Positions 22,200-52,847 of a stretch of 64,000 nucleotides of DNA are shown one piece after another (position 1 is the first letter of the stretch; every line of letters begins with the position of its first letter). A program made the translations under genes and the position numbers. The notes below the pieces were generated by a model, which worked only from the letters and a program-made list of their open reading frames with translations, made no database searches and was not told the DNA's origin. The stretch is from an uncultured Christensenella sp. (GTDB lineage Bacteria > Bacillota > Clostridia > Christensenellales > UBA3700), in assembly GCA_910583735.1 (NCBI GenBank), contig CAJTXS010000001.1, positions 80,402-144,401 on the forward strand. Direction: 5' to 3'.

Positions 22200-22240
22200 A
22201 ATAACAATTTTTTGAAAGTACACACTTTCGGGAGGATGTA

Positions 22241-23164: not shown

Positions 23165-23240
<76 letters not shown>

Positions 23241-30945: not shown

Positions 30946-30974
30946 TTGACAATGCGGGCGCATATTATTATAAT
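30946..30974 (+). promoter_or_regulatory. Perfect consensus sigma-70-type promoter of the giant lipoprotein gene
   Basis: TTGACA (30946-30951), spacer atgcgggcgcatattat (17 nt), then TATAAT (30969-30974). ATG 31026 lies 52 nt downstream of the -10 element. Confidence 0.75.
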
Positions 30975-31025
30975 AATCTAAAACAGGCACGACCTGATTG
31001 CTTACATCGTAAGGGAGAGAAGATT

Positions 31026-31115
31026 ATGGGAAGCAAGAAAGGCAAATTCTTAGCGTTGGCGATTGTGATCGTTATGCTGGTAGCGCTTAGCGGGGCATTG
31101 ATATTGTCCGCATGC
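31026..31115 (+). other. Sec/SPase-II lipoprotein signal peptide of the giant protein
   Basis: The n-region is KKGK, followed by a 20-residue hydrophobic core and lipobox L-S-A-C, with the Cys codon at 31113-31115. Confidence 0.75.
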
Positions 31116-34100
31116 GATTCCGGTGTGACGGTTATTTTCGATGCCGGCGCGGGTACTTTCGAGAGCGGCAACAGCATAATGACGCTTAACAACGTTGCTC
31201 CGGGTACCGTTATTAATCTCAAGGATTACAATCCTAAGAACGGAGGGCAGAAATTCGTCGGTTGGGACGACGAGTCTCTCATGTCGTATACGGACGAATA
31301 TACGATTCCTTCCGACGCCAAAGGAGTCATTAAACTGACTGCTAAGTGGAGAGCGGGTAATTCCGGGGGCGGTTCCGGCGTATTGTCACCGCTATTCTCT
31401 GTGCTTAACAGTATCTCCAAGGGCGACAAGATTAATACTCATATCAAGGGTTCGGGTATTTCCGGCGGTAAAGAGTACGGTCTTGAATACATATCCAACA
31501 TAAGTCGCGGTCTGGGCAATAATGCGTTGGATTACGATTTGGGCTTCCAACTCACCGAAGACGGAACGCCCAAGCTCGGCATATATATCGTTGATATTCA
31601 AGGTGCTGCCGGCGGTCTGTTCATAGACACCAAGCCTTCCGATCCCGATTCCAAGCCCATATATATCGAAGATTTCAATATGGATTATCTCCTCAGCGTC
31701 GCTGAGAAGCTTCCTTCTTTCTTGCAAGAGTTGCTTAATTCCCAGTCCTTGGTGAGCGGTATTATAGACGGCGTAGTTCTCTCCATGTTTATGTCTGTCA
31801 ATACCACTACGAGCGGCAGCGTTACCAACTATGACATTACTATCTCTCCTCTCAAGTTGGTCAACGGACTTACGAGCCTGTTGGAGAATCCTCTTATAGC
31901 AGGCGTTGTCGGCGGATTCCTCAGCAGTATAGACCTCAATCCCTTGCTTACATGGCTTAAGGATAATGTCCCCGATGTGGACTTTATCGTCAGAGCGGGC
32001 GTTAATTCCGCAGGTCAGCTCGCAGGAAATATCGAGCTCGACCTTATCGACAATTCGGTAGGCGAATCCACCTTTACATTTAACACGGCGCAGCTTACGC
32101 ACGGCACATATGACAGCGAGACTCTTTCGCTTGTACCCGATAAGGTAAATAATTATGTGGCTTGGTCTTTGGGAAATATTAAGCTTTCCGCCAATTTGGA
32201 CCTCAGCACAGCGGGCAACAACGTAGACGTAGGCGCTCTGATCAATACATTTGTCCCCGGGACGCTTCCTCAGGGGCTGATATTGCTCGACGCCAACCTC
32301 GGATACCGTCTCGATGCCATTATCGATATAGATATCAAGCAAGCCAATCCTGCCGAAGATAAGAATCTTATCGCAATCGAACTGTATGAGAAGGGTAAAT
32401 ACGGCTCCGAGAATGCGATATTGGGAGTATATTACAGGAACGGCTCGCTGTATATTAACATAGGCAACATACTCAATAAATTGCCTTCCGCAAGCGGCAA
32501 CGGAGAAGTCGCCAAGTTGTGGAGCGGCAAGGGCATAAAGATAAGCGGACTCAACCTTAACGAATTGGTCGGCGCTATTAAGCAGCGCGCCGTCTCGGAG
32601 ATCGATAAGCTGTTCGGCACCGATCACGGCAAGATAGAGCAGTCCGGTATGGAGAGCACGCTTAAGATGCTCACTCAGCACGATTCCGTAATGGCTTTGT
32701 CCGTGGACGAAGAGGGCGAGACATATATCTCTCCCGGCTGGGGCAACTTCATCTCCATGCTGTTTAAGGTATTGAAAATCGACGGTGAATACGTCGATGT
32801 GACCAACACTGCGGACGGCGGAGAGCTTGCGCTGACCATCAATAACAATCTTATCGATTCCATAATGGCTGCGCTTAAGGGGCTTATCCCCAATTTCGGC
32901 GGTATAGATCTGCCCGATATCGGAGAAGGCAAGCTATTTATAAAGGTAAATAAATACGGACTGGAATCTATAGGTATAGATCATACTATAGGCGGTATCA
33001 ACCTCGGCTTGAGTTTGAGCGACTTCTTGCTCTTGCAGCCCATAATGTTCGGCGACGATGACGCGCAGCAAGATTTCGCATCTTACATCGATTCTTGCGT
33101 GGGCGACGAGTCGGGATATACTACGAGCATCAATGAGTTGATTAACGAGGTGCTCTACGGCGGTATTAAGGGCAGCATCAATCTCGATCTGTCGTTCAGC
33201 GGCGGAGAGTACAATTTGTCCGAGCTTCTGTCAATGTTCGGACTGTCGCTCGGCGATATTAAGATAAAGATAGACAATCCGAATGCCAAGATAGCTCTCG
33301 GACTGGATTTCGGTCTCTATATCGATGAGAATAATCCCGACAGAGACAGCGCGCTCTATCTCGAGCTCGTTGCAAGAGAGCCCGTATATCTGGAGAATCC
33401 CGACGGCGGAACGGCGCTTATCAATGAAGGTATTATATTAGGTATATATTTATATAAAGATGCCATCTATCTCGATGCGTCCAATCTCAAGATACTTAAT
33501 CTGGAGATGCCTATCTATAAACTTGATAATGTGGGTGCAGGCTCCGCTATAGAGGCGTTGCTCGCGCAGCTTCCCAATCTCGATCTCAACCTCGACCTCA
33601 GCGGCGTTATCGAGTCCATTAAGGGCAATCCCAATGCCGGGGAAGGCGAGGCTGAAGCGGCTGCGGCGCTTGCGGAGCTCACCAAGGATAGCGGCGGAGT
33701 GCTTTCCACTTCGCAGGTTATGTCCAACTCCGGCGCCATAGCGCTCTATCTCGGCAGCGACGCGATTAAGCTCTCTGCGACGGTAGGCGCAATATTCACA
33801 TTGCTCAGCACCTTCAATGTCAATCTCGGCTTCGATATCAACGACTATATACAGGGCGAGATTCCGCTGGAGATAGAATATAGAGACGGCAAGCTGTCGC
33901 TTAAAGTCACAGCCAATCTGCTATCTACGGTAGACGGTAAAGACAGCAACCTTACTCTTGCTCTCGGCATAGATCTTGCAGATGTCAATATCGCGGGATG
34001 CAAGCAGGAGATTAAGGAGCGAGTCGACAACGTAGGCTCCGATTATATCAATCAAGAGCTCGACGACTATGTCATCAAGGGCTTGCTTAACGCCGTACTC

Positions 34101-37100
34101 GATACTCAGATTTCTATCAATATAATGCTCAAGCAGGGCAGACTCGACGTGCTTAAACTGGTCGATTACTTGCTCACCACGCTCAAGGTCAGCGTAAGCC
34201 TGTCCGATTTGGATTTGGACGGTAGCATAGGTACCGATTCGCTCGAGGCTACGCTTAATATTAAGCTCGCTATGTCCAATTCCGACAATCCTATTATGGG
34301 TATAGAGCTGATTGCGGGCGAGACGGGCAGCGCGGGTGTGTTGTTCAGTCTGTACTTGGATAAGAACAATGCCTATATCGACCTCAATGTACTCGGACTC
34401 GGCAAGTATAAGGTCAGCAATACCGGACTTATGGGTATGCTTACCGACTTGCTCGACGGATTTAGCGAGAGCGTAAGTCTCAAGGGCTTGCTCAACCTCG
34501 ACAGCTTGCTCGACGTAAGCAAGACTATCGCGCTTAAGGCCATCACTTCCGTCAATGCGGGCACTACCGTGGTATGGAACAGATACGGTCAAGCAAACGA
34601 TATATATTACAATGTATACGGCGTTACGCCCGGCGTAAACGGCGCTGCCGATACTGTAGAGGCAATCGCTATGGGCGTAACTCATAACGATGCGTCTATA
34701 TTCGTCGACGGAAAGTTCATGATTGTCGACGCGGACAACAGATACGGATATTACAGAGTAGACGTATGCACGCTTAAGAACGGCAACGAGAAGGTAATCG
34801 TCTCGGCTACTGCGTCTGCAGAAGACTTCGATTATGGCGCGAAGGCTGAGTATAGTAAAGATATCAAGTCTACCGATATATCTTGGAACGTATATAACGG
34901 CAAGTATAAGTACGCCGTAACGCAGATAGGTTCCGACGGACAGAGCAGAGACGTCGATATATCTTCTGCCGTCATCGAAGGCGGAGTATTCAAATTTACC
35001 GCAGACGCTACGGGAGTAGTATCTTATAAGGTAAGAGTATTCATCCCTGGCGAGGATATCACCGTAGATGAATTTACATTCGCAGTAACTAAGGTGGATT
35101 CCGACAAGCCTCAAGAACCCGCAGCTATAGACGTTGCAATCAACGATATCGCAAGGTCCGTATCTTGGAGCGGCGTAGAGGGCGCATCTTACTACGAAGT
35201 ATCCTTGGCGATTGCGGGAGCTGCAGCCGCGGAGTGGACTACTAAAGTATCCGCGGGCGGCAATCTTACAACCAAGTGGTATAACGAGTACAAAAATTAC
35301 TCGATTACAGTCGTCGCTTACGATAAGGACGGCAATAAGATCACCGAAGGCGCATCGAGCACAAGCTATAACATAATCGACGCGTTGCTCTCCGGACTTA
35401 CTATCAACAACGGTATAATCGGACTGGAGATCACGGGCAAAGTATTCGGCGACATACTTGCCAATCTGATAGGCGAGAATTACAGGATTGAGATACTCGA
35501 CGTTGCGCTCAGAGATGTCAATATCTTCACGGGAACGGCGGATCTCGAGTTGAATATCTACGATTCTATAGGTCCCGACGCAGGCAAGATAACCGTGAGC
35601 GCGGGCATAGCCATATCTCCTACAGATGTGGACGCGCTTGCTGCCGATGTTGAAGCGATGAATGCGGAGGGCTCGGGATACTCCGAGATAGACTTCGCTT
35701 TCGGCGGCAATGTCGTCAAGGGTATATGGGATCTCTTCGACGAGGGCGTAATGCTCGGTATGGACCTCGAGATAAAGTTCGCTAAGGGAAGTTACAATCT
35801 CAGCAAGTTGTTCGCTATGTTCGGTGATAATCTGGCAAGCATGCTCGAGAACGGTCCCGTATGGACCTTCGAGGCGGATACATCCGTCAAGCTCGAGCTT
35901 AAGCTCGGTATTATACTCGACGACATTTCCAAGCTGAGCGAGGAGGCGCGTAAGAAACTTCCTCAGGGTATGCTCAAGGCTCCTCAGATAATGTTGAGCA
36001 TAGGATTCCCTCAAGGACTCGTACTCGGCAACGACGTTGCGATCAAGCCTAATTCCTCTATAGACGTATTCCTCAATTACGAAGGCTTGTCGATAGATTT
36101 GTCCGGTATCAGCATACTCGGATTGACTTTACCTAAGTACAGAGCGGAAGGGTTCGACTTCTTCGGCTTCCTTAACGGATACCTGCTCAAGCTCGAGCAG
36201 ATGATAGGCGCTCAGTACAATCCCGACGGATTGGTTATAGACGCCGCTAATTCCTCCGTGATTACATCGGGCGATACATCCGCTCTCAATCTCAAGTGGA
36301 AGAGCTATGTGGGCGCAGAGGGATACAGCTATGTAGTCAATAAGGCGGGCGCGGAATCTTCCGAAGAGGTAAAGCTCGGTAAGGATGCGACATCCGCTAC
36401 CATCGACGTCACAGGATTGAAAGACGGCGACAATGTTACCTTAAATGTGCTCGACACTATGGGCAACGCGTATGCAAGCGCAATTTATTACGCTAAGATA
36501 GTGGACGGCGAGCTAACTTTCGAGCTCAACGTAGGTCAAGCGCGCATGGCAAGAGCACAGGGCGACGACGTATCCTTGATGATAACTAAGGATAAGTTGA
36601 GCCTTATGATTACATCGCAGGCGTTGCTGTCGATAATCAAACTCGTATACGGCGATAAAATCGATATCGATTTGCCCGACCTCGATTTGACGATATTCGG
36701 AGAGATAGGCAATATCGACGGAGTTACCGGAATACTTCTGAAGGTCGTAGGCGACTTGATTAAGCCCGAGGGCTATGTCGGCACCGATCCTACGTTGGAG
36801 ATGTCTCTCAAGCTCTATTTCGACTCGGGCGAAGCGGTCAAAAACCTCAATATAGGCGATAAGTACGCCGCATTCATAGCAGCTGCGGACAATGCGGGCA
36901 GCAAGTTGATATCCGGCTTGCTCGACTCCCTGTTCAATACTTCGTTCAGCCTGTATATAGATTTGGCGGCGGAGCAGGGCTTCGATATAATCGACGTGCT
37001 CAATATGTTTATCGGCGACAAGATAGATCTGTCGACGCTTAACTTGGATACTATCGTCAACAACAATAGCGGTAACAAGCTGTTGGAACTCAAGCTTACT

Positions 37101-46100: not shown

Positions 46101-49100
46101 AACAAGGCTCGCGCAAGCTGGCTCGCTAAGGAAGGCGTAGTAGCTTACGAGATCTATCTTGTATCTTCGGGCACGGGCGCAAGGATACCTATGTCCAGAG
46201 ATGTGGCGGAGCAAGGCAAAGCTACAGTCATAGGAGCAGGCAGAGTCGAGGGATACGATACGCTCGGTATTAACGGCGACGGCATCAAGCCCGGCACGGA
46301 AATATCCATAGAGATTGATACTTCTCCGTTGTTTGCGTCCGCAGGCAGCGCGCTCGGCAGATATCAATCGATGTTCGCATCGGGATTGAGCGCCCCCGCT
46401 CCTTCAATAGGCGACGTCAATAGCAGCGAGGATTACTACGGATATTATATAGTTGTCAACTGCTACGGCAATGTCAAGGAGACAGAGGATTCCGAAACTC
46501 CCGCGGTCGATAAATACGAGCTTGTGGCAAGGGGTGCGGCGGACAGCTATGGCGCCGTCAACGTCAACTTTGTTCCCAAGTCCGGAGCTGCGGCAGGTAA
46601 AGGCAACTATATAATCAGCTGGGACAATGTCCCCGGCGCTGTCAGATACAGCGTATTGCCTTACTACTCGCGCAAGAATATTACTTCTGCCGGCATGACC
46701 GTGGATTACATTGCGGTAGGCAAGAGCTCTTCCGCAGCGAGCGGCTACAACTTGAGCGATCTGCTTGTGACGGGCAATTTCGTCAATATATACAATGTGG
46801 ATTACTCGGGAGCTTATAACATAGAGTTGTGCGCATACGATACATACGGCAATATCGTCGGATATAGTGTGGTTACCAACTCCATAAAGGCTAACGGCGG
46901 TAAACTCGTGCCTATGGCAGTGATCGAGATAATAGCGAAGGCGGATCAGTTGGGTATAGTAGTCCAGCTGGATGCTGTAGCGGCTATGCTTGACGCCTTT
47001 GGCGTAAGTCTCGGCTCGTTTGACCTCGGCGCGCTCGATCTCGAGGCTGCTGTCGGACTTAAGACTTATGTAGAACGCGTAGTCAAGCCGACTGATGTCG
47101 GCGCTGATAAAGTGGATAGCGTAGATGTATACGGAGCGCATCTCAAGGGATTGAATTCGGGCTATGAGTATACCGTTAAGATAACGCATACCAATGAAGG
47201 CAGGCTCATCTCAGAGAAAGAGTACAGCTTGAACTCCGATTACAGCGGCAAGATGGATGTCGAGTTTATTATGAATGCGCTTGGCGAATATAACTTCTGC
47301 GTATTTGATAACAGCGGCGCTAAGGTGATTGATTTCACAAGCCGCACGCTCAAGAAGTATTGTCTCGACGTAGTCGGCGACTTGATGCAGAACGTCAATA
47401 CCGCGGGAGCGGTGGTGAACGCGGGCGAAACGAGCGGAAGCGTAACTGCCGCGATTAATTCCGGAGCATTGTCTTACACATGGTCCGCTATCGAAGGCGC
47501 TACCAACTACAGCGTCAGGGTAGATTACTTCAAGGATCTGTCCGTGAGCGGCGCGCCCGATGCGACAGAGACCAAGAGCGTGAGCGGAACATCGATGCAG
47601 AGCTCGTTGAGTCTCGAGCAAGGCTCATATCTCGTGACTGTTACGGCGGGCAACGGAGCTTCGTCGGGTAAGTATATACAGGTGATGTTCACTGTCGGAA
47701 GCAATAAGCAGCTCGCGAGTAACGCAGGCAAGGTGCTCGGACAGATAGGCGTGACTACAGACGGCCGTCTGATATACTGGAACGCTATGAGCGGAGCTTA
47801 TACCTACGGATTGGATATATGCGAGAGAGAGAACGGCAAAATCGTCAAGTCTGCGGTATATGACGGACTTACGGGCACGGTGCACAGCGTTACGCTCAAC
47901 CATGCCGGTTCGTACGATGTGATTGTCAGAGGATACGATGCCGACGGCAATATGTTGCCCGATATCTACAGCGCGCATATCGATGTGGGCGGCAGGTCCG
48001 ATTTTGTCATAAACGCTACTGTATCTTATGACGATATAGTAATAGGCGGCGGAGAGAGCGATTACAACAATCTGAGCAACCTAATTAACACAAAGGCCAA
48101 CGCTTATCACAGCGGCGACTATGCTACGACTGTAAGAATGTTGATGTTCAACTATCTGCAAGATGTGGGACTCGGACTCAAACTTGACCTGTCCGCGACC
48201 CAGACAGTCATCAATATGGCGGATATGATTAACAAGATATTCAACGCCGTCAACGGCACCTCGCCTATAGGCGCGCCTATCAGACTGGATATCAAGGGCA
48301 TACGCGACATGGGTATGACGCTCAATCTTGAGTGGCATCTCGACTATACCCGCAACAGCACCACGCAGATGGTTACCGGTATCAACGGTCAAGGTACTAC
48401 TCTCAAGGTCGAGTTGAACTATTACGAGGGCAACAATACCAAGACATTGCTCGGCTTCTATCTGAAGGATAGGTCCTTCTATATCGCGCTGCAAGGATTG
48501 GGATTGTTCAATATCAAGATGTCGTCCAACAGGATGATCAATAACCTTACCGGTACATTGTACTCCGTGCTCGACAACTTGACTCAGAAGCTGGACGACA
48601 CCATAGACGGGGCGCTTGGCACAGACGCCGGCGACGGTATCGACTTCAGCGTATTGCTCAAGGCTCTCTTGGGCGAATACGCAGAGATAGATCTCGGCAG
48701 TATAATCGTCGGCAACAGCGTTTTGGAAACCGACGAATTGCAGCCTGTGGCTAAGAGCGAATCGTTGCAAGACATGGATATCAGTTATATCATAACCAAG
48801 TTGCTCGGCGTGGTTTCGCTTGAGAATTCCTCGCTGCTTGTCAACGCTACTTCCGCGATAATCGATACGGTATTTGCGGATCTGCTGGGCGTAGAACTCG
48901 GTCTTGACTTGGATCTGTCCGTGCTGGTAGGCATACTTAACGGCGATATCGCAGCCAGCTTGCGTATCGACAACGTAACTATCCAAGCCGAGCTCGATTT
49001 GCACATCAATGACGGCAGCGATTACAGCGGACTCACAGTTCCCAATATGAACTTTATCGACCTCAATGTCGAGCAAAGCAGCGGTACGCAGCTTGCGATG

Positions 49101-52100
49101 TCGCTGATAGCAAGCAGCGGACTCAATCTGTCTATCGACCTCTCCAATGCGTCTGTCGAGAGCATAGCTTTCTACAACTACGATGCGGACGGAGCGTATA
49201 GGTTCGGCTATCCTGCGGCTGTGCGTGTCAGCGTCGAGGCGCTTAACGAAGACCGCACTATATCCGAGAACCTTAACGGCTCCATGCAGGTTGAGCGCGG
49301 AGGCTTGCTTGTCACTTTGGTCGGTATCGATACCAACGAGTATAACACAAAGGGCGCCGGTACGACGTTGCCTTTGGCATACGTGTACATTTCGCCTAAC
49401 GACTCGCTTACGGTTAAGCTGGCTAAGGGATGGTTTATAATCGAGGCAAACGCTATAGGTATTAACGTTACCGTAGACCTCGGAGATAATCTGTATGCGT
49501 CTTCGATGGAGAGCTTGATCCGCAGCTTTGTACCTGCGGGCACTTTCCCCGTTACCATCAGCGTGCCCAACCTCGGTATTATGAATACCTTGGGCGGCTT
49601 GCTCGACAAAGTTATCAACCTTATTATAGGCGACGAGAGCAGCTCGGGCAACACAGGCGACGTAACCGAGGAGGATACTTCTTCCGGTACGGGAGAGACT
49701 GTTGTCGATTACGGCATAAAGGTCTATGCGTACGGCTCCAACAATCCTGTTGTGGAAGGATCTACGTTTAGGATAGAGCATAATCGCGCTACCAACGCAG
49801 ACGGAGTCGCATTCGACGGTTACAACCTTAGAGTTATGCGTGCCGACGGCTACGAATTGCTCAATGTGACTTATCCCGCAAGCGCTACTACAAGCGGCGG
49901 TAAGTACGGATACAACGTCAACTTTAACTGGTATGAAGATTATCGCATAGTAGTCGAAGGATATATGAATAAGACCGGTTTCGATAAGATACTCGGCGAG
50001 CTTGATATATGGGCTTTGCTGGGCGGCAACCGTAAGGGAAGCAATCCTGCGACATTGCCGACGGGCGGCGCGTATCCTACTGCCGAGGCTTGGACAGAGG
50101 ATGACTTCGGTATAACAGCGGCGCTGTCCGGAACGGGTAACTTCAATCTCAGTGTCGACTTCGATACTTACTATCTGAATAAGCTTATCGACGACATAAT
50201 GGATTTGGTATTCGGAGCCAATACGATTCTCGACCTCAGCTCTATGGGACTGAGACATAATTACCTGTCTCACACATGGTGGGATAGGACATCGCGTTCG
50301 TCTACATGGCTCAATACCATGGACTTCGGCAGCAACGGAAGTCGTATGGCTATGCAATTCGATCCTACGTCTACTCTTGACTCTATATCCGTACAGCTAA
50401 TGCCGCTGCTTGCAGACGCACTCGAGTTGATCAATATCAATATAGACGTCAGTGTAGGTCCCGCTATCAAGATTAAGCTTAACGGTCCTGCAATAAGAGC
50501 CGGAGACGACAATCTTAAGTCAAACGAAACAATGGCTAATCTCAACAGAATCTTCATGCATCTGTTGCCTTTTGCGGTGTGGAATACGGCTAGTCTCAAT
50601 GTGTCTTTGATAGACGGCACGATTGCCAATATCTCCTTCGACGGCGAGGACAAAGGTCTTGCGGTGAGAGATGAGAACGGCAGAGTGCTTACGCACGAGG
50701 TACAGACCTTCTACGGTAAGTACAACGAGGGCGAGAGCCGTGACCAGTATTACTACGATACGGGTAAGCCGGACGACTACACCTACAGCAATATGAGCGG
50801 CAGAGGCGGCGTGAGGAAATTGACTTCCAACGGCAGAACTAAGACGTCTACGGTAGTGAGGAACGGCAAGTCTTATACCGCATACGGTTATACCGTAACC
50901 TACAACGCCGTAGGAGTCGCAGGCTCTAACTCGGGCGGACTGCAGTACAGCGGAGCTATCTCCAACACCGCAGGCACGAGCGGAAGCCGTATGAATCTCG
51001 ACTTCACATATGTGCGTACGGGTTCGGCTATCATCAATAGATCTACGCAGAGCGGCACAGGATTCAATACCGGTAGCGACTCCTCGCAGTGGGGTAAACC
51101 TATGGGAACGACGTTTGTCGTCGGACAGAACGACATAGCGCCTTTCCATACCAAGATAGATATCTACAACGGATCCGCGTCTGTAGGCAACTCGTCGACC
51201 ACTACCGATCATACTTCGGGTATAGTGAGTTGGGGTGGATTGCCCGCGTATGTCGAGTATGATCCGCTTGCTATGGGCGATGCATATGCCGCGGCAGACT
51301 ATATGATGAAGAGATACTTCTTATCGGGACTTACCGCGAGATATCAGCTCGGCTCCAGCTTTGCAAGAGGTCAGATAACCTATGCGGTTAACGGCGCGAC
51401 TCTTACAGCTGCTAATCTTGCTTCTGCCCTTAGCTCGTCCAACGAGGTGACTGTAGTGGCAACGGCTGTATTCGGCGGCTCTGTCGGCTCTAAGTCGTTA
51501 AGCATAGTAGTACATCGCAATACGTCCACTATAGTGTCTATCGACAAGGTAAAGATGCATTACTTCGACTCGTTGCCTCAGTATGTGGTTGTGACCACAA
51601 GCGAGGGCAAGCGTAAGAAGTATGACGTGACGACCAACCGTAATAAGGTGGGCGACGAGAATAAAGTCCTGCTTACCGACTACGATCCCGCTACGGTATC
51701 GGCGGCGCAAGGCGCTACGGTAAAGGCTAAGTTGACCTTTGTTGACGGTACGGTGAGCAATCTGTTCGAGATAGAGTATGTAGACTCGACATTGAGCCTC
51801 GAGAACAGCAAGGAGCTTGACCTGTATTCGTTCAACAACATCGACGATGTCGTGAGCGCAATCAACGGAATCAAGGTCACATATGCCGACGGCGACGCAG
51901 TGCTGAGCGATGACATGACGCTCGGTAACGGCGGCAGCGGCAGCAACATGCAAGTATACTCGGCTAAGGCGGGTAGATGGATAGCGCTTGGCAACTGGGC
52001 TAGCAGCGTACTCGATATTAAGGGCGATACGATTTATATCCCCGTATCGATAAGCCAGAATGCAGGCGACTGGGGCAGCGGCAGATTGAGCCAGTCCTCG

Positions 52101-52751
52101 ACTATAGTCATCAATATAGCGACTAAGTTGCCCGAGTATGTCACGGTAAGAGACGGCGAGGCGGATACGATAGTTGTACGTCCCTACGACCACTATCTGT
52201 CGCTTGCAAAAGGCGACGACAGCTTGGCGGCTCTGCCCGGAAGTATCACGGCGCATTACGCTAACGGTACGTCCGAGAATATATCCGTCAGATGGAAGAA
52301 CACCGATGGCAGATACGTGCGTTCCAATTCGATAATAACCGGTTGGAATACCATGGGCGCCGAAGGTAAGTTGTATGTGGAGAACGATGAGGTCATCTAT
52401 CAGAAGTTCCACTGGGCTTACGGCAGAGATGACTTGCGCGGCAAAGTAATCAATTACAAGATGGAGTCGGGCAGAGTCGTCGGTATGATGTTCGACTTGG
52501 ACGGAGACGGAGTGTACGAGTCTGCTACTCCCGACATGAAGAGTAAGCAGGTCGATGCTCAGGTCGAGTTCTCGGGCGGATATAAGATGATATTGCCGGT
52601 AGCGCTCGACATCATAGGCAACAGACTTATCGGTTATGTCGGCTATGACGTGGAGGCGTACAAAGCCAACAGTCTGAATATCTGCGACTACGAAGGATAT
52701 AGCTTTAAGCAGGCATTCAGCATTACAAAAGATGCAAGCAGCTTGTTCTGA
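31026..52751 (+). CDS. Giant surface lipoprotein, 7,241 aa (InlB-B repeat + unassigned supermodules + Fn3-like units + Ig-like C-terminus)
   Basis: A single open frame runs to TGA 52749-52751. ATG 31026 is preceded by an AGGGAGAG SD. The signal is MGSKKGKFLALAIVIVMLVALSGALILSAC. Recognisable domain signatures recur throughout. All long antisense ORFs in this region lack any such features. Confidence 0.9.
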   Translation: MGSKKGKFLALAIVIVMLVALSGALILSACDSGVTVIFDAGAGTFESGNSIMTLNNVAPGTVINLKDYNPKNGGQKFVGWDDESLMSYTDEYTIPSDAKGVIKLTAKWRAGNSGGGSGVLSPLFSVLNSISKGDKINTHIKGSGISGGKEYGLEYISNISRGLGNNALDYDLGFQLTEDGTPKLGIYIVDIQGAAGGLFIDTKPSDPDSKPIYIEDFNMDYLLSVAEKLPSFLQELLNSQSLVSGIIDGVVLSMFMSVNTTTSGSVTNYDITISPLKLVNGLTSLLENPLIAGVVGGFLSSIDLNPLLTWLKDNVPDVDFIVRAGVNSAGQLAGNIELDLIDNSVGESTFTFNTAQLTHGTYDSETLSLVPDKVNNYVAWSLGNIKLSANLDLSTAGNNVDVGALINTFVPGTLPQGLILLDANLGYRLDAIIDIDIKQANPAEDKNLIAIELYEKGKYGSENAILGVYYRNGSLYINIGNILNKLPSASGNGEVAKLWSGKGIKISGLNLNELVGAIKQRAVSEIDKLFGTDHGKIEQSGMESTLKMLTQHDSVMALSVDEEGETYISPGWGNFISMLFKVLKIDGEYVDVTNTADGGELALTINNNLIDSIMAALKGLIPNFGGIDLPDIGEGKLFIKVNKYGLESIGIDHTIGGINLGLSLSDFLLLQPIMFGDDDAQQDFASYIDSCVGDESGYTTSINELINEVLYGGIKGSINLDLSFSGGEYNLSELLSMFGLSLGDIKIKIDNPNAKIALGLDFGLYIDENNPDRDSALYLELVAREPVYLENPDGGTALINEGIILGIYLYKDAIYLDASNLKILNLEMPIYKLDNVGAGSAIEALLAQLPNLDLNLDLSGVIESIKGNPNAGEGEAEAAAALAELTKDSGGVLSTSQVMSNSGAIALYLGSDAIKLSATVGAIFTLLSTFNVNLGFDINDYIQGEIPLEIEYRDGKLSLKVTANLLSTVDGKDSNLTLALGIDLADVNIAGCKQEIKERVDNVGSDYINQELDDYVIKGLLNAVLDTQISINIMLKQGRLDVLKLVDYLLTTLKVSVSLSDLDLDGSIGTDSLEATLNIKLAMSNSDNPIMGIELIAGETGSAGVLFSLYLDKNNAYIDLNVLGLGKYKVSNTGLMGMLTDLLDGFSESVSLKGLLNLDSLLDVSKTIALKAITSVNAGTTVVWNRYGQANDIYYNVYGVTPGVNGAADTVEAIAMGVTHNDASIFVDGKFMIVDADNRYGYYRVDVCTLKNGNEKVIVSATASAEDFDYGAKAEYSKDIKSTDISWNVYNGKYKYAVTQIGSDGQSRDVDISSAVIEGGVFKFTADATGVVSYKVRVFIPGEDITVDEFTFAVTKVDSDKPQEPAAIDVAINDIARSVSWSGVEGASYYEVSLAIAGAAAAEWTTKVSAGGNLTTKWYNEYKNYSITVVAYDKDGNKITEGASSTSYNIIDALLSGLTINNGIIGLEITGKVFGDILANLIGENYRIEILDVALRDVNIFTGTADLELNIYDSIGPDAGKITVSAGIAISPTDVDALAADVEAMNAEGSGYSEIDFAFGGNVVKGIWDLFDEGVMLGMDLEIKFAKGSYNLSKLFAMFGDNLASMLENGPVWTFEADTSVKLELKLGIILDDISKLSEEARKKLPQGMLKAPQIMLSIGFPQGLVLGNDVAIKPNSSIDVFLNYEGLSIDLSGISILGLTLPKYRAEGFDFFGFLNGYLLKLEQMIGAQYNPDGLVIDAANSSVITSGDTSALNLKWKSYVGAEGYSYVVNKAGAESSEEVKLGKDATSATIDVTGLKDGDNVTLNVLDTMGNAYASAIYYAKIVDGELTFELNVGQARMARAQGDDVSLMITKDKLSLMITSQALLSIIKLVYGDKIDIDLPDLDLTIFGEIGNIDGVTGILLKVVGDLIKPEGYVGTDPTLEMSLKLYFDSGEAVKNLNIGDKYAAFIAAADNAGSKLISGLLDSLFNTSFSLYIDLAAEQGFDIIDVLNMFIGDKIDLSTLNLDTIVNNNSGNKLLELKLTTSGSYSDFEQVAILLQINYMGKELIALAVRDGDAYLDLSGIGAGVIKVTDSSTPLTANIKKMLDDMIGKIEIDIEEKLNGLLGIGKPQQGNVSTLATGGADQAANAAAPIDTSSLIAAIIDMVVINDSVIKLYATSEMIKGLLNQFFSISLNIELNGDIDIFNGEAQVNVSLKDSADKAITLSLGLSINAMTNAELSALEQDLDGRAASFDGVVIDLSNIVGSVADLLNGLDLSIELDVNFGANDNVNLWDVIGVILTSLVKADGAVNDVFEALGEQGFRWQLDTATDINLKLKLATDIRTKTVNGEEVIDEETSAIVVGLIAGTDLTIGYDATDNNREVIIKQGEGIYLVIKGGKLYIDLSCVHILGLTLPVLRADNFDVMSYLTGIVGDVKQAVDKIFGGTVRSEAEGGDEAATVGSSEMALDGGSDGSILIGQDITFSIGLKAVLSLLSEMGLVDLTALKLDWNIVATTGVQNGLLKIAIEHNGESTPIIGFNAALTLGVKLRGEADQEADAERADLLDKATGADVRYADSTSNVIDAMLNKVLNTTIKLGISAHSASDKFNISRLLSQLIGLIATGSNGLDSSKAFNIDVSDLERLELTITLSGKADNLSQLSAMIRIDSVYKNYQGVDVNNKILAIYVDSGNLYADLSALLSNVNIIKINNSAIMNILSDTLNKLLSGVNLDLNDIINIKPKAQQPDGGASLAPAAAADANALDVAELIKSVAKIVRLHNTSIALEASTDAIDQLLFGMFGIHLDVLDVNGAIYLINGRAELNANIYDYDGNALTVGLGLSIAENGIDETAALKSAIAHAEATAVELDFTNGKTLAQTVLDVLGGVSLQLDVKVQLPEGVFGIGDLLSGFGIDIADANAFELIISGGDLRLDASLIAKAAFDYDNPNNTTVMLEVVMNSDAVFGAVGGEDNIVFHAGDRILGIYIKGSELYVDLSSLTLLGIELPVYYTANFNIQGFINYLLNKLIGGLDSMIFGEFAVNAEYSDSATKMVWNQVDGADAYLVKVNGEKVGTVLADAEVDGKYAFTPAADKLTGIYTVEVVPMVKKAVEGSEQFNYVEMGGRIGKYTNAFNLYTSYGADGSANIAWDRISGAQFYTVKVNGEKIADTEETSIVIDNLVGGEVIEVVPYKTVDDVVQAINDYIGRIVFKTSQAPVSTVAGIDDLDVNELFLLGISRDQINIKLSLDAVQAILQALNLDVALGGYDAVIDITLKPNQDWLSLSFESNLGEAYGGTNASGEIALSVFDIYNGDALDGFKQSLASDSIWDILASKKDNAYSNIVDGLLDKMLNLSATLDISVSGDTALNLRNVLNSVFSQIDQLKDLSITEDIMLELSGLDLQLALNLGIDLSSVNNTVISIALNDMRGGKNNLLGIHLFQGKLIIDATGIAFGRYVIDGAELFQGLFDMLNGAISGLRNATDMDGLLDMLYGLVDKTPEQTGDSISMADTEEKGNLPAGTHSIAVRVSTDANAGTTTFSWDSVPTAMRYRLMLYSGYDLTNKTNLIREADFMPAGLDICNTVRETSVTFSTAALNKIGFIKDSMSPFDGVLQSGYYYFVVEAVRKYGADSVEPIYSEDGLVINGGYTNFSVLKSILSMVKIKNDKISLTASAATINKLLAGTLGINFDWASVVLDIDLFDGIGNLDFTVSDGDRAVIADNVTLQKNATSVELGWDTVENADYYEINITDISGKNKIDTVQVHSGDMTVSGNRASYSVDATAYPWLLTKELRYRVSAIFDSVNTAVINLTLATGDNGREKAVEAMKENGILVEFGENSDYTIAPEIPSLSEINGVSIKQFVEGILSVVRLEASLDIFISRGSYNISSLINSLLEKLNLNVEGLDESGIVWTLTDDLRFTIDLKLLFSLGATAEDTKFVLEVSSGGLSLTEADGSVIGVINEGLLLGLYYQNGNAFVDLSNVTLLGIQMPCYTFDIDVHGLLTDLIDSLFKDFDFSVLGKGLSVNVEGNANGDRYATWNNYSKSAEYKVEVFKAVDGADGALSWVSAGSVTAPAGATRANITSLVGRDSRYKVEVTAFDAEGSEIAKDEKICGVEAQEQRMSLASDMDSLDMRQLIMLGISSDKLHLEVTTKAVASLLASFISGNETVAMITDILGLFDLRLVGEWQAKEALTLKLQGDLFNTDFKPVAVACDNVSYVVSDDLRGVTFTWDEIDAADGYELTIKNSSDVTVATAKSDTNSVYVPFDSIFTQAVLAPNGGSWSAVGIVENPLNVTLKLHTEKLLNPDEMGKVPEEIDGILAGVDIDKAKEEYGSKLIAGLLDKIYNLDLSIALDFSQVDGFSLSEVLSVMVGNLILGATGISVGELTDALDLRLSTDATTVALDIMLNVDRVNPADTNIAIQLSSVIGGYNKDILLALYIYSNKLVVDMRAIGLRAYEIRNLEYIVSLQEELFGLIDSLIGDIEIDITEVIGGLLNPKNDVNGDNNGGDVSDEPGVGDSALGEETLPSIGVRVVNSRDSEGNRVTALKWNDVDGAVKYVLTMPAEDGSKTEITLSGNEYEFVSSASVYGKPYEVKIEAYNADDVLIAVGSRGANGVIASLLNALSLHNSIIRLDVTSDILDTILSTLLKDISINMDPIDSLDANIDIFNGNAEAKINLVLKQGETGAVVNNLVLGATLGLAMAPELYKVDSTTGISDPDTVIQKSLDAIGEVTVVDLGVGDPAGRIANAIFSALSTSSLSVDISVAFNAGTYDLAELLKSFGLDILGDTHLYWTFNRDTEIALTLELSARISPNAYNDSLLLFDIKAGNDIIFPAVSLGGKNYGEFRIDAGDSILSVFGRSNTNGTSYIYLDLSGFSVLGIPLPVLRAEYNFGRMIINEIYDLAAKITGQYKPEIFYEADDQGNMRLFWEAREFGVEQIKYDFKVVNADNNAEIVNIKGSEFLNGSNVVDTSYVLGKDKVATRMNVSITAYFEYTLTDGKPARRIVAENTAFIDLSSQAEVAEYSADDVNKDTQDKGLDILDTVKLEYTGLNKARASWLAKEGVVAYEIYLVSSGTGARIPMSRDVAEQGKATVIGAGRVEGYDTLGINGDGIKPGTEISIEIDTSPLFASAGSALGRYQSMFASGLSAPAPSIGDVNSSEDYYGYYIVVNCYGNVKETEDSETPAVDKYELVARGAADSYGAVNVNFVPKSGAAAGKGNYIISWDNVPGAVRYSVLPYYSRKNITSAGMTVDYIAVGKSSSAASGYNLSDLLVTGNFVNIYNVDYSGAYNIELCAYDTYGNIVGYSVVTNSIKANGGKLVPMAVIEIIAKADQLGIVVQLDAVAAMLDAFGVSLGSFDLGALDLEAAVGLKTYVERVVKPTDVGADKVDSVDVYGAHLKGLNSGYEYTVKITHTNEGRLISEKEYSLNSDYSGKMDVEFIMNALGEYNFCVFDNSGAKVIDFTSRTLKKYCLDVVGDLMQNVNTAGAVVNAGETSGSVTAAINSGALSYTWSAIEGATNYSVRVDYFKDLSVSGAPDATETKSVSGTSMQSSLSLEQGSYLVTVTAGNGASSGKYIQVMFTVGSNKQLASNAGKVLGQIGVTTDGRLIYWNAMSGAYTYGLDICERENGKIVKSAVYDGLTGTVHSVTLNHAGSYDVIVRGYDADGNMLPDIYSAHIDVGGRSDFVINATVSYDDIVIGGGESDYNNLSNLINTKANAYHSGDYATTVRMLMFNYLQDVGLGLKLDLSATQTVINMADMINKIFNAVNGTSPIGAPIRLDIKGIRDMGMTLNLEWHLDYTRNSTTQMVTGINGQGTTLKVELNYYEGNNTKTLLGFYLKDRSFYIALQGLGLFNIKMSSNRMINNLTGTLYSVLDNLTQKLDDTIDGALGTDAGDGIDFSVLLKALLGEYAEIDLGSIIVGNSVLETDELQPVAKSESLQDMDISYIITKLLGVVSLENSSLLVNATSAIIDTVFADLLGVELGLDLDLSVLVGILNGDIAASLRIDNVTIQAELDLHINDGSDYSGLTVPNMNFIDLNVEQSSGTQLAMSLIASSGLNLSIDLSNASVESIAFYNYDADGAYRFGYPAAVRVSVEALNEDRTISENLNGSMQVERGGLLVTLVGIDTNEYNTKGAGTTLPLAYVYISPNDSLTVKLAKGWFIIEANAIGINVTVDLGDNLYASSMESLIRSFVPAGTFPVTISVPNLGIMNTLGGLLDKVINLIIGDESSSGNTGDVTEEDTSSGTGETVVDYGIKVYAYGSNNPVVEGSTFRIEHNRATNADGVAFDGYNLRVMRADGYELLNVTYPASATTSGGKYGYNVNFNWYEDYRIVVEGYMNKTGFDKILGELDIWALLGGNRKGSNPATLPTGGAYPTAEAWTEDDFGITAALSGTGNFNLSVDFDTYYLNKLIDDIMDLVFGANTILDLSSMGLRHNYLSHTWWDRTSRSSTWLNTMDFGSNGSRMAMQFDPTSTLDSISVQLMPLLADALELININIDVSVGPAIKIKLNGPAIRAGDDNLKSNETMANLNRIFMHLLPFAVWNTASLNVSLIDGTIANISFDGEDKGLAVRDENGRVLTHEVQTFYGKYNEGESRDQYYYDTGKPDDYTYSNMSGRGGVRKLTSNGRTKTSTVVRNGKSYTAYGYTVTYNAVGVAGSNSGGLQYSGAISNTAGTSGSRMNLDFTYVRTGSAIINRSTQSGTGFNTGSDSSQWGKPMGTTFVVGQNDIAPFHTKIDIYNGSASVGNSSTTTDHTSGIVSWGGLPAYVEYDPLAMGDAYAAADYMMKRYFLSGLTARYQLGSSFARGQITYAVNGATLTAANLASALSSSNEVTVVATAVFGGSVGSKSLSIVVHRNTSTIVSIDKVKMHYFDSLPQYVVVTTSEGKRKKYDVTTNRNKVGDENKVLLTDYDPATVSAAQGATVKAKLTFVDGTVSNLFEIEYVDSTLSLENSKELDLYSFNNIDDVVSAINGIKVTYADGDAVLSDDMTLGNGGSGSNMQVYSAKAGRWIALGNWASSVLDIKGDTIYIPVSISQNAGDWGSGRLSQSSTIVINIATKLPEYVTVRDGEADTIVVRPYDHYLSLAKGDDSLAALPGSITAHYANGTSENISVRWKNTDGRYVRSNSIITGWNTMGAEGKLYVENDEVIYQKFHWAYGRDDLRGKVINYKMESGRVVGMMFDLDGDGVYESATPDMKSKQVDAQVEFSGGYKMILPVALDIIGNRLIGYVGYDVEAYKANSLNICDYEGYSFKQAFSITKDASSLF
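31125..31349 (+). other. InlB-B / Listeria-Bacteroides (Flg_new) repeat
   Basis: VTVIFDAGAGTFESGNSIMTLNNVAPGTVINLKDYNPKNGGQKFVGWDD...IKLTAKW fits the ytVtFd..GG......G.....P...G..F.GW......L.AkW pattern. Confidence 0.7.
32418..48545 (+). repeat. Array of divergent protein-level supermodules (about 6 copies; 13 copies of the core motif hLGhYh..G.hYhDLS)
   Basis: Core motif codons start at 32418, 33432, 34341, 36060, 37170, 38139, 39012, 39903, 41253, 42840, 44247, 45507 and 48447. Two flavours alternate. I noticed no near-identical nucleotide repeats. Confidence 0.7.
51500..52330 (+). other. C-terminal Ig-like (Big_4-like) region of the giant protein
   Basis: LP..V.V....G......V.W-type strings are present: LPQYVVVTTSEGKRKKYDV (about 51573), LPEYVTVRDGEADTIVV, and LPGSITAHYANGTSENISVRWKN (52233-52301). 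The assignment is tentative. Confidence 0.4.
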
Positions 52752-52761
52752 TTGATACAAT

Positions 52762-52790
52762 CCGCGGCGGATAGCCTATATTCGCCGCGG
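52762..52790 (+). other. GC-rich hairpin without a U-tract directly after the giant gene
   Basis: CCGCGGCG (52762-52769) pairs with CGCCGCGG (52783-52790) around a 13-nt loop. It is followed by AAAAATAAGG, not a T-run. Confidence 0.6.
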
Positions 52791-52838
52791 AAAAATAAGG
52801 AAATTCTTAATTAAGGGCTTCCTTATATAAAATAACTG

Positions 52839-52847
52839 TGCTATAAT
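52839..52847 (+). promoter_or_regulatory. Candidate extended -10 promoter for the second giant gene
   Basis: TGCTATAAT (TGn + TATAAT at 52842-52847). The -35 is weak (TTCCTT, 52819-52824). It lies 129 nt upstream of ATG 52976. Confidence 0.4.

Follow-up and report, generated by a model that had tools for sequence, protein, structure and literature searches.

The stretch of DNA analysed here, hereafter the window (64 kb), carries a gene of an uncultured gut Clostridia bacterium that runs on the + strand from an ATG at 31026 to a TGA at 52749–52751, through 7,241 uninterrupted codons with no internal stop and no N, within a stop-free frame that extends upstream to 30909/30915. The organism is taken to be monoderm. 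A second giant open reading frame, ORF2, follows downstream, and genes for sialic-acid utilisation form a cluster in the same window. An earlier note on this DNA had proposed the 21.7-kb frame of 7,241 residues, its start at ATG 31026, a Shine-Dalgarno sequence 6 nt upstream and a consensus promoter, and all four were borne out (Table 1). The promoter, a full 12/12 match to consensus, sits within a 1.6-kb AT-rich intergenic region, while the start gains comparative support from a related locus, L002, that has a stop codon five codons upstream of the same ATG. Rfam found a tRNA elsewhere and nothing in the long leader, where a riboswitch or some other RNA element had been considered, and no terminator was called by a consensus scan at the hairpins that follow the stop codon. 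The gene also contains long ORFs on its antisense strand, the longest of 758 aa, which are regarded as by-products of coding-strand composition, not as genes.

Table 1. Coordinates of features at the giant-protein locus, in positions of the window
Feature	Position	Strand	Basis
Sigma-70-type promoter, TTGACA-17 nt-TATAAT	30946..30974	+	12/12 consensus match
Shine-Dalgarno AGGGAGAG, 6 nt 5' of ATG	31012..31019	+	read directly from sequence
Predicted giant lipoprotein gene, precursor 7,241 aa	31026..52751	+	open frame; dN/dS 0.09 vs L002; collinear with P0003
Predicted Sec/SPase-II signal peptide, aa 1-29: n-region MGSKKGK, long h-region, lipobox L-S-A	31026..31112	+	pattern matches
Lipobox cysteine Cys30, then Asp at +2	31113..31115	+	pattern matches; family comparison
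Listeria-Bacteroides (Flg_new / InlB-B-type) repeat, aa 35-107	31128..31346	+	sub-threshold Pfam PF09479
Family-conserved N-terminal region, aa 120-880: N-terminal domain and modules 1-2	31383..33665	+	alignment with 13 orthologues
Module copy 1 (partial), aa 287-493	31884..32504	+	iterated internal HMM
Module copy 2, aa 596-851	32811..33578	+	iterated internal HMM
Module copy 3, aa 905-1149	33738..34472	+	iterated internal HMM
Span with at least 10 small Fn3-like beta-sandwich domains, motif W..V.GA..Y	35127..47651	+	internal HMM
Module copy 4, aa 1456-1726	35391..36203	+	iterated internal HMM
Module copy 5, aa 1849-2098	36570..37319	+	iterated internal HMM
Module copy 6, aa 2146-2420	37461..38285	+	iterated internal HMM
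Module copy 7, aa 2458-2708	38397..39149	+	iterated internal HMM
Module copy 8, aa 2754-3008	39285..40049	+	iterated internal HMM
Module copy 9, aa 3209-3453	40650..41384	+	iterated internal HMM
Module copy 10, aa 3634-3987, split by Fn3-like insert aa 3698-3759	41925..42986	+	internal HMMs
Module copy 11, aa 4111-4456, Fn3-like insert aa 4199-4254	43356..44393	+	internal HMMs
Module copy 12, aa 4596-4880	44811..45665	+	iterated internal HMM
Module copy 13 (partial), aa 5630-5855	47913..48590	+	iterated internal HMM
Module copy 14 (N-terminal half), aa 5928-6047	48807..49166	+	iterated internal HMM
C-terminal region, aa 6050-7241, family-conserved, ends in Ig-like domains	49173..52748	+	about 20 family members match aa 6150-6900
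Big_4 stretch (PF07532), aa ~7068-7093	52227..52304	+	27.5 bits vs cut-off 22.1; partial match, above cut-off
Two strong hairpins right after stop codon, without U tract	52761..52826	+	MFE -34.3 kcal/mol, z -5.2
Putative partner gene ORF2, second giant ORF, >3,674 aa, open to window end	52976..64000	+	ATG 52976, GGGAGG SD, N-terminal TM MSKSRRYALIAAVTVAVLVICSVAVVLL

A frame of this length in a MAG-type assembly invites the suspicion of an assembly chimera, a repeat collapse or a pseudogene open by chance, as giant ORFs are classic sites of mis-assembly. The gene, however, contains no DNA repeats longer than 30 nt and no tandem repeats, which rules out repeat collapse, and its internal protein repeats are ancient, at 24–30% amino acid identity. 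L002, which lies on contig CAMWNK010000003.1 of an independent MAG, is 83% identical at the amino acid level and shows no break in the frame in any of the 4,208 codons available, with a dN/dS of 0.09 over 4,194 codons that is uniform across 500-codon bins; a single-protein scan of genome contigs returned one close MAG only. Moreover, a homologue of 7,116 aa (P0003) is collinear with the giant from residue 1 to the C-terminus at 25–44% identity, and its 90% cluster holds many copies of 7,104–7,128 aa, independently assembled more than ten times, one of which recurs on 26 contigs, the longest of 1.04 Mb. Neither the frameshift nor the assembly error that had been raised as a concern in the earlier note was found. 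The ORF is a genuine, selectively maintained gene, and the artefact explanation is effectively refuted, with only a vanishing probability left to it.

Lipoprotein signals consist of a positively charged n-region, a hydrophobic h-region and a lipobox of the form [LVI][ASTVI][GAS]C, with the cysteine lying within about the first 40 residues. The N-terminus of the giant, MGSKKGKFLALAIVIVMLVALSGALILSAC/DSG, displays each of these at the sequence level (MGSKKGK, then FLALAIVIVMLVALSGALI, then LSAC with the cysteine as residue 30), and it fits the PROSITE PS51257-type rule as well as the G+LPP lipobox pattern, in agreement with the Sec/SPase-II signal proposed earlier. A lipobox cysteine is likewise present in 41 of 42 N-terminally complete relatives, including P0003 and P0020, with true sites at about residues 14–49, and lipid tethering would thus be a trait of the family and not a one-off. 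Other anchors claimed to be absent were indeed absent: there is no LPXTG-like motif (LP.T[GASN], NP.TG) anywhere in the giant, no C-terminal hydrophobic segment (the chain ends in ...KQAFSITKDASSLF) and no second hydrophobic segment able to span a membrane, while Pfam and NCBIfam scans of the whole length at E<=0.1 returned no SLH, LysM, CWB/CWB2 or choline-binding domain and no catalytic family. Anchoring by sortase (LPXTG) or SLH domains was rejected for want of the motifs, and searches of Pfam, NCBIfam and the PDB turned up no wall anchor or known giant-adhesin family that covers the length, a possibility that had earlier been left standing.

The giant is apparently a Sec-exported prolipoprotein tethered to the membrane by its N-terminal lipid alone. 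Lgt would attach a diacylglyceryl group to Cys30 of the exported protein, and signal peptidase II would cut between LSA and the cysteine, giving an acidic chain of 7,212 residues and 771 kDa (computed pI 4.3) with the lipid as its sole membrane attachment. It is conceivable that the N-terminal segment is instead a type-II signal anchor, an uncleaved transmembrane helix that holds the protein in place of a lipid and beside which the cysteine is incidental, and the unusually long h-region (about 20 residues, F8 to L27) fits such a helix. This is nevertheless improbable, given that [LVIFA]-x-[AGS]-C ends the hydrophobic segment in all but one of the N-complete relatives against very low N-terminal identity otherwise, that cysteine is scarce elsewhere in the giant (15 in 7,241 residues) and that both published lipobox patterns match.

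The layout of the chain comprises a List_Bact-type repeat and an N-terminal domain, about 14 modules accompanied by Fn3-like domains, and a conserved C-terminal Ig-like (Big_4-type) end. A Pfam domain scan at E<=0.1 gave two matches only, Flg_new/List_Bact_rpt and Big_4. The first of these (PF09479, E 0.0086) spans profile positions 2–65 of 65 at 16.6 bits against a cut-off of 27, and TIGR02543 matches the N-terminal repeat weakly, at 14.2 bits against 20.95; Big_4 matches in relatives are similarly weak or faint. The modules, diverged alpha/beta units of about 255 aa recovered by an iterated internal HMM, account for 49% of the chain. Whole-protein self-BLAST gave the identity match only, and the internal repeats were seen after the protein had been cut into fragments, whose comparison yielded the identities among copies given above.

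Roughly 10–20 Fn3-like domains are interspersed with the modules, two of them as insertions within a module; at least ten were detected by an internal HMM, with lengths of about 60–90 aa and starts at aa 1368, 1746, 3019, 3114, 3504, 3698, 4199, 4513, 5187 and 5473. Their resemblance to Fn3 is at the level of the motif W..V.GA..Y, which is typical of bacterial Fn3-like domains. The Fn3-like content reported earlier thus stands as far as this motif goes, recurring as it does in at least ten domains under an internal HMM, but it finds no support from the Pfam fn3 model (PF00041), which had no match in the giant at E<=0.1. Conservation among family members extends to the C-terminal ~1,200 aa, and the last Ig-like strand motif (GYDV...) is kept in P0003, P0050, P0010 and P0045, so this end is not a variable toxin tip. 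Pfam detected no toxin domain in the giant, and a polymorphic toxin or contact-dependent effector was ruled out on these two grounds.

Relatives of the giant are few. An exhaustive profile search for the module found only 55 clusters among 1.84 billion (1.84e9) representatives, and their members, typically 2,000–7,300 aa in length, differ mainly in module number and contain no LPXTG; the giant and its ~7,100-aa homologue are jointly the largest. A total of 234 copies of the module were collected. The module has no sequence match in Pfam, NCBIfam or the PDB, PDB sequence and profile searches gave no match, and the N-terminal regions of 14 orthologues drew nothing relevant from Pfam even at E<=10. 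A word-indexed homology search with the C-terminus of the giant yielded one match, and the only source name carried by relatives is "hypothetical protein [Clostridia bacterium]". Homology searching thereby places the giant in a rare, unannotated and previously undescribed family of predicted Clostridia giant lipoproteins.

The one confident structural model, built with AlphaFold2 for aa 120–880, about 10% of the protein, is of moderate quality (pLDDT 70.1, pTM 0.59) and has, for every ~250 aa, some 11 long antiparallel strands together with helices. Every Foldseek match with a probability of about 0.9 or more has a LolA-type fold or a related open half-barrel, namely LolB (9tpm; probability 0.97, E 2.7e-3), S. 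aureus SAOUHSC_02783 (4egd; 0.96, TM 0.40), LppX (2byo; 0.93, TM 0.44), EPD-BCP1 (8i34; 0.93, TM 0.49) and LolA (8t5j; 0.91), with a LolA-like protein (3bk5; 0.69) and DUF1329 (4z48; 0.66) following at lower probability. The best half-barrel matches are weak, with E of 2.7e-3 to 0.16, none at E<=1e-3, and target-normalised TM of 0.32–0.49. Foldseek against viral structures found no match. A beta-groove of the AsmA/TamB type was also rejected, there being no AsmA, TamB or DUF490 match in Pfam and none in the top 50 Foldseek PDB matches. A model of a single module, built with nine internal paralogues, reached a pLDDT of 46, and its Foldseek matches were discarded as noise. On the larger model, part of aa 120–880 may weakly resemble the LolA/LolB/LppX half-barrels.

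The gene downstream appears to belong to the same system; the earlier note had picked up neither this second giant ORF nor the repeated module and its family. A large same-strand gene lies no more than 55 nt 3' of the lipoprotein gene, or overlaps it, in all ten related loci examined; its products are mutually homologous and all possess an N-terminal signal or TM, and most of those that are complete also possess a C-terminal TM and basic tail. The lengths of lipoprotein and partner are correlated (r=0.77, p=0.015, n=9; kinship not corrected for). In the window, the giant gene and ORF2 are separated by 224 nt with strong hairpins and a possible extended -10, making their co-transcription uncertain. 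ORF2 has no Pfam match and its N-terminus found none in a word-indexed homology search, but its repeat region is related to that of the MBG_2/MBG_3-bearing partner in locus L011 (E 1.7e-5 in a small database; i-E ~1e-4), and it occupies the equivalent position. This weakly suggests that ORF2 is a member of the partner family. Gene order and homology across the related loci point to a conserved two-gene cassette that would encode a giant lipoprotein and a membrane-anchored MBG-type repeat protein. Surface giants built from MBG domains (PF18676 / PF18887) accordingly provide one point of comparison for the neighbour gene, whereas the giant lipoprotein itself lacks an MBG domain.

Comparison with other known systems reveals a mixture of features. 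The giant resembles Gram-positive lipoproteins, as substrates of Lgt and Lsp, in its basic n-region, hydrophobic core, LSAC, early cysteine and Asp at +2. Those proteins range from <20 to >60 kDa and are mostly substrate-binding proteins and enzymes (PMC7530257), whereas the giant is repeat-built, without a substrate-binding or enzyme domain, and at 771 kDa it lies far outside their range, as the earlier note had remarked. It is acidic, multi-thousand-residue and repeat-built, contains Ig/Fn3-like domains and lacks a catalytic one, all of which it shares with giant surface fibres such as S. aureus Ebh and the LPXTG repeat adhesins, and like them it is presumed to project beyond the wall. Unlike theirs, which is a C-terminal TM or LPXTG, its predicted anchor is an N-terminal lipid, and it lacks FIVAR, GA, DUF1542, Cna-B or any other known adhesin repeat in Pfam, its core module being new.

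The giant proteins of Omnitrophota and other phyla, of >10,000–85,000 aa, have numerous TM helices, contain SecA-like domains and come chiefly from ultra-small predatory bacteria (bioRxiv 10.1101/2023.11.21.568195). They too are rare, metagenome-derived and for the most part without annotation, with a predicted role in extracellular attachment (same source), but the present giant has a single N-terminal lipobox and none of their TM-helix or SecA-like domains, and belongs to a different family. The proteins of the LolA/LolB/LppX–LprG group, including GerS and SAOUHSC_02783, provide the best structural matches for part of aa 120–880, and several are themselves lipoproteins. They are, however, single domains of ~200 aa, each an open antiparallel beta half-barrel with helices, while the giant reiterates an alpha/beta unit of similar size ~14 times; the two share no sequence similarity, the structural match is weak (E>=2.7e-3, TM 0.3–0.5) and the fold may differ. 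Finally, giant RTX adhesins exported by type I secretion systems (T1SS) bear C-terminal RTX nonapeptide repeats and a T1SS signal and have no N-terminal Sec signal. An adhesin of that kind (LapA or SiiE type) was rejected here, as an N-terminal SPII signal is present and Pfam found no HemolysinCabind or other RTX match.

Taken as a whole, we think it probable, though well short of assured, that this is a genuine prolipoprotein gene whose product serves as a lipid-tethered surface fibre or adhesin scaffold working with its partner. Tethered to the membrane without the help of sortase, the giant would form an extracellular fibre that crosses the wall and carries its conserved Ig-like C-terminus well away from the cell, serving as an adhesin or surface scaffold. 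Its partner in this would be the protein of the adjacent gene. In related loci that protein has a signal at its N-terminus, a head at its distal end and a TM with basic tail at its C-terminus; it would be anchored the opposite way round, and the two proteins scale together in length. No recognised adhesive or ligand-binding domain was found in the giant, and the adhesin or fibre role remains what the earlier note had called it, an inference.

Several other accounts of the protein deserve weighing. In one unlikely reading, the cassette could represent a two-component organelle of an undescribed kind, in which an N-lipid giant and a C-TM partner with co-evolved lengths meet at their distal ends as a paired fibre or closed arch. 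The lipoprotein backbone would string together ~14 LolA-like half-barrels with room for hydrophobic cargo. Such an organelle would be a Sec-only, sortase-independent appendage of >100 nm in uncultured gut Clostridia, possibly lipid-carrying. The half-barrel likeness also underlies a rather unlikely proposal that the modules and/or the N-terminal domain are LolA/LolB/LppX-like half-barrels with hydrophobic cavities, which would make the chain a tethered array or conduit for hydrophobic molecules across the thick wall and not a passive fibre. LppX-type lipoproteins carry lipids in mycobacteria, and candidate cargo here would include glycolipids, lipoteichoic-acid precursors, lipoprotein acyl chains and host lipids. 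The strand-rich model and the uniform half-barrel character of its most probable Foldseek matches are consistent with this proposal, but those matches miss E<=1e-3 at low TM, the ~250 aligned residues may be the N-terminal domain only, a LolA-clan Pfam match is absent even at E<=10, and the single-module model is unusable. Moreover, the Fn3-like domains between and inside the modules speak against a continuous groove, and a LolA-like fold in Clostridia need not mean lipid binding, as with GerS of Clostridioides difficile, a LolA-like lipoprotein that activates an amidase (10.1101/2025.01.13.632879).

It is also conceivable, if doubtful and a shade more so, that the lipid anchor marks only an export or assembly intermediate and that the protein is then shed or processed, ending up in a sheath, a matrix, an S-layer-like coat or material associated with vesicles. 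Release of lipoproteins does occur in Gram-positive bacteria (PMC7530257), the giant is very acidic, and one lipid offers little hold on 771 kDa. Against such a fate, Asp at +2 has been reported to strengthen membrane retention of lipoproteins in S. aureus (PMC7530257), neither a protease domain nor a conserved cleavage motif turned up, and the partner keeps membrane anchors of its own.

If the predicted lipidation of the tethered fibre is true, the family would comprise lipoproteins more than 10 times larger than the Gram-positive range of <20 to >60 kDa (PMC7530257), and intriguing questions would follow: how a 771-kDa chain is exported by Sec and threaded through peptidoglycan, whether one diacylglycerol can retain a protein of that mass, and why a lipid tether should be used over a sortase anchor. 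The rarity of the module, together with its lack of any sequence match in the databases searched, makes it a clean target for structure determination. The family also offers a natural series, from 2 to 14 modules with partners that scale in length, in which the control of fibre length could be put to the test. In these uncultured and probably host-associated Clostridia, the two-gene cassette may encode a major surface or colonisation structure.

The giant frame is stop-free on the forward strand from 30909 to 52748 in a frame scan of the window, and the ORF as listed runs from TTG 30915 to TGA 52751. Translated from ATG 31026, it yields 7,241 residues and its only stop is the terminal one, in a window containing no N, and the open frame described in the earlier note was thus borne out. 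The consensus promoter and Shine-Dalgarno (SD) sequence reported there were both confirmed (Table), the promoter lying within a 1.6-kb AT-rich intergenic region. The proposed start also holds: L002, the close locus from another metagenome-assembled genome (MAG), shares the identical MGSKKGKF... start with a stop codon just five codons 5' of its ATG, and P0003, a distant homologue, begins equivalently (MGKSKHK...). By these comparisons, ATG 31026 is the true start.

Repeat searches over the ORF detected neither tandem repeats nor direct DNA repeats of more than 30 nt, and the protein-level internal repeats are only 24–30% identical, so that mis-assembly through collapsed or expanded repeats is of no concern. 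L002 (CAMWNK010000003.1, "uncultured Clostridia bacterium") is an independent MAG with the same upstream synteny, and its frame is open across all 4,208 codons covered. Over 4,194 aligned codons the two proteins share 83% amino acid identity (dS 1.17, dN 0.108, dN/dS 0.09), and with dN/dS at 0.07–0.14 across all 500-codon bins, the giant protein is under uniform purifying selection. The alignment of P0003 (7,116 aa) to the window protein is collinear, starting at residue 1 and reaching the final residues, with 25–44% identity; the 90%-identity cluster to which P0003 belongs comprises 30 members, including many independently assembled copies of 7,104–7,128 aa, and one copy in the cluster occurs on 26 contigs, the largest of 1.04 Mb. 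Taken together, the selection seen against L002, the repeat-free DNA and the independent full-length homologues mark the giant architecture as ancient and reproducible. The ORF is contiguous, as the note had it, and this is a genuine gene maintained by selection; that it is an artefact is extremely improbable. Many long ORFs also occur antisense to it (Table), and these probably arise from the amino acid and codon composition of the coding strand and are unlikely to be genes.

Table. Features of the giant-gene region and its surroundings
Feature	Position	Strand	Details
Large protein	1469-4687	+	1,072 aa; GLUG motif its sole annotation
Large protein	13639-16620	+	993 aa; no Pfam match
Sialic-acid utilisation cluster	19320-23116	+	BNR sialidase, NanE epimerase, ROK kinase, NanA-type lyase
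tRNA-Ala(GGC)	23165-23240		Directly followed by integrase
Tyrosine integrase	23570-24505		
Promoter of giant gene	30946-30974	+	TTGACA-17-TATAAT, perfect match
SD of giant gene	31012-31019	+	AGGGAGAG, 6 nt 5' of ATG, read from sequence
Long antisense ORFs	31392-52760	-	Many, e.g. 48081-50357 (758 aa), 33921-36014 (697 aa)
Module copy 10	41925-42986	+	Contains an inserted Fn3-like domain; internal HMMs
Module copy 11	43356-44393	+	Contains an inserted Fn3-like domain; internal HMMs
Two very stable hairpins	52761-52826		Directly 3' of giant stop; z = -5.2; no U tract
Possible extended -10	52839-52847		TGCTATAAT, 3' of the hairpins
ORF2, second giant ORF	52976-64000 (runs off window)	+	ATG, GGGAGG SD, N-terminal TM, >3,674 codons

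Residues 1–30 (MGSKKGKFLALAIVIVMLVALSGALILSAC) conform to the PROSITE-type rule for lipoboxes and to the G+LPP pattern of Gram-positive lipoproteins. The most persuasive evidence is comparative: among 42 N-terminally complete family members, 41 have a hydrophobic segment ending in [LVIFA]-x-[AGS]-C. Sequence around this motif shows hardly any conservation, and retention of the lipobox in spite of this argues that lipid tethering would be a conserved property of the family; an uncleaved signal anchor in its place is highly unlikely. The giant lipoprotein and about a dozen relatives carry Asp at +2 after the lipobox Cys, a residue reported to strengthen membrane retention in S. aureus (PMC7530257). 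Scans of the whole chain revealed neither an LPXTG-type motif nor a second stretch with TM-grade hydrophobicity free of charged residues, the C-terminus is hydrophilic, and no SLH, LysM, CWB or choline-binding domain was found with Pfam or NCBIfam. The earlier claims of a lipobox and of no other anchor (LPXTG, SLH, LysM, wall-binding or C-terminal TM) are therefore both supported, and the predicted anchorage is by a conserved lipobox alone. The predicted mature protein has 7,212 aa, a mass of 771 kDa and a pI of 4.3; sizes given for Gram-positive lipoproteins run from "<20 kDa up to >60 kDa" (PMC7530257).

An iterated internal HMM resolved ~14 copies of a novel ~255-residue module, accounting for 49% of the chain and each closing with an LG(I/V)Y...LY(I/V)DLS...L.LP.Y motif and then a helix. 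A second internal HMM located at least 10 small Fn3-like beta-sandwich domains with a W..V.GA..Y motif, which lie between modules and, in two cases, within modules 10 and 11. These two insertions indicate that the module accepts a whole domain in a loop, and the arrangement fits a backbone of modules decorated by small Fn3-like domains. The Fn3-like content noted earlier corresponds to these motif-bearing domains, and of the InlB-B content there is a sub-threshold similarity of residues 35–107 to the Listeria-Bacteroides repeat (Pfam, NCBIfam). The last ~1,200 residues are conserved family-wide and terminate in Ig-like domains, and one short Big_4 stretch in this region is the only above-threshold match in Pfam or NCBIfam. 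No PDB match was obtained by sequence or profile. Across these searches known families cover at most a few tens of residues, in keeping with the view that no known wall-anchor or giant-adhesin family spans most of the length.

The module family is rare and unannotated. An exhaustive search of 1.84 billion cluster representatives with a profile of nine module copies returned just 55 proteins at E<=1e-3 (44 at E<=1e-10), whose sole source name is "hypothetical protein [Clostridia bacterium]". N-terminally complete members are mostly 2,000–7,300 aa, with 2 to 14 modules each, the extreme expansions being the window protein and the lineage of P0003. A further lipobox giant, P0049 (7,286 aa; NCBI/ENA, 146-kb contig), has ~5 recognisable modules over 4,800 residues and may represent a separate, still more divergent branch.

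AlphaFold modelling of a single module gave a pLDDT of 46. For residues 120–880, using an alignment of 13 orthologous regions, the model (pLDDT 70.1, pTM 0.59) has runs of long antiparallel strands (10–13 residues) interrupted by helices. Foldseek returned no PDB match at E<=1e-3, and all matches with a probability of ~0.9 or above share an open half-barrel fold: LolB (9tpm, 0.97), S. aureus SAOUHSC_02783 (4egd, 0.96), M. tuberculosis LppX (2byo, 0.93), EPD-BCP1 (0.93) and LolA (8t5j, 0.91). A Vibrio LolA-like domain (3bk5, 0.69) and DUF1329 (4z48, 0.66) scored lower. This likeness, over ~250 aligned residues, may lie in the N-terminal domain, in the module or in both, and is best regarded as a lead. 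It is conceivable that the protein is a lipid-handling chain of LolA-like domains, but GerS of C. difficile is a LolA-like lipoprotein that acts as an amidase activator (10.1101/2025.01.13.632879), a clostridial precedent by which the fold need not imply lipid transport, and such a role is considered unlikely.

A second giant ORF, ORF2, which the earlier note did not mention, begins directly downstream, 224 nt past the stop codon. In all ten related loci examined (L001, L003–L011) the gene after that of the family lipoprotein is large, lies on the same strand and starts within 55 nt of it or overlaps it by a few bases, and this neighbour is conserved. These partners (1,196–3,064 aa where complete) are mutually homologous (E-values down to 1e-36) and have a signal or TM segment at the N-terminus; at the C-terminus, the majority of those that are complete have a TM helix and then a Lys/Arg-rich tail. 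Four have MBG_2/MBG_3 Pfam matches. ORF2 has no Pfam match and no homologue in a word-indexed search. Its matches to the related-locus partners are weak, with E 1.7e-5 for the MBG region of the partner in L011 and i-E ~1e-4 for others, and its position and N-terminus are consistent with the partner family. Longer lipoproteins tend to go with longer partners (r=0.77, p=0.015, n=9, without phylogenetic correction), a trend extended by the window pair (7,241 and >3,674 aa). The C-terminal TM helix and basic tail would give partners an anchoring polarity opposite to that of the lipoprotein. With each protein tethered by a different end of its sequence, the distal parts would be the C-terminus of the lipoprotein and the N-terminal head of the partner. 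Co-transcription of the giant gene and ORF2 is uncertain because of the two strong hairpins and possible extended -10. This region could stabilise the 3' end or act as an attenuator, and could contain an internal promoter for ORF2.

Four of the ten loci (L005, L006, L009 and L011) have an OmpR-type response regulator directly 5' of the cassette, accompanied by its histidine kinase in three of these, and L003 has a SigI/RsgI-like (sigma/anti-sigma) pair there, which suggests signal-controlled expression; the window has a divergent MarR gene 5' of the giant gene. The tRNA and integrase genes are followed by NUDIX, two ABC exporters, MarR and the giant gene pair, an integrase-ABC-giant order also found in L002, and the tRNA-integrase site may mark one edge of an integrated island. 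The region is rich in large, putatively surface-exposed proteins, including two more with little or no annotation (Table), and the sialic-acid cluster points to an organism that lives with a host and forages on mucin.

Lipoproteins are known, and so are giant surface proteins built of repeats; new here are their combination at giant scale, the module, the family and the pairing of the two genes, none of which was found in Pfam, NCBIfam, PDB or the literature searched. Release or processing of the giant lipoprotein into a coat is also judged unlikely. We somewhat favour a lipid-tethered extracellular fibre or adhesin scaffold, which would reach past the cell wall and act together with its partner.
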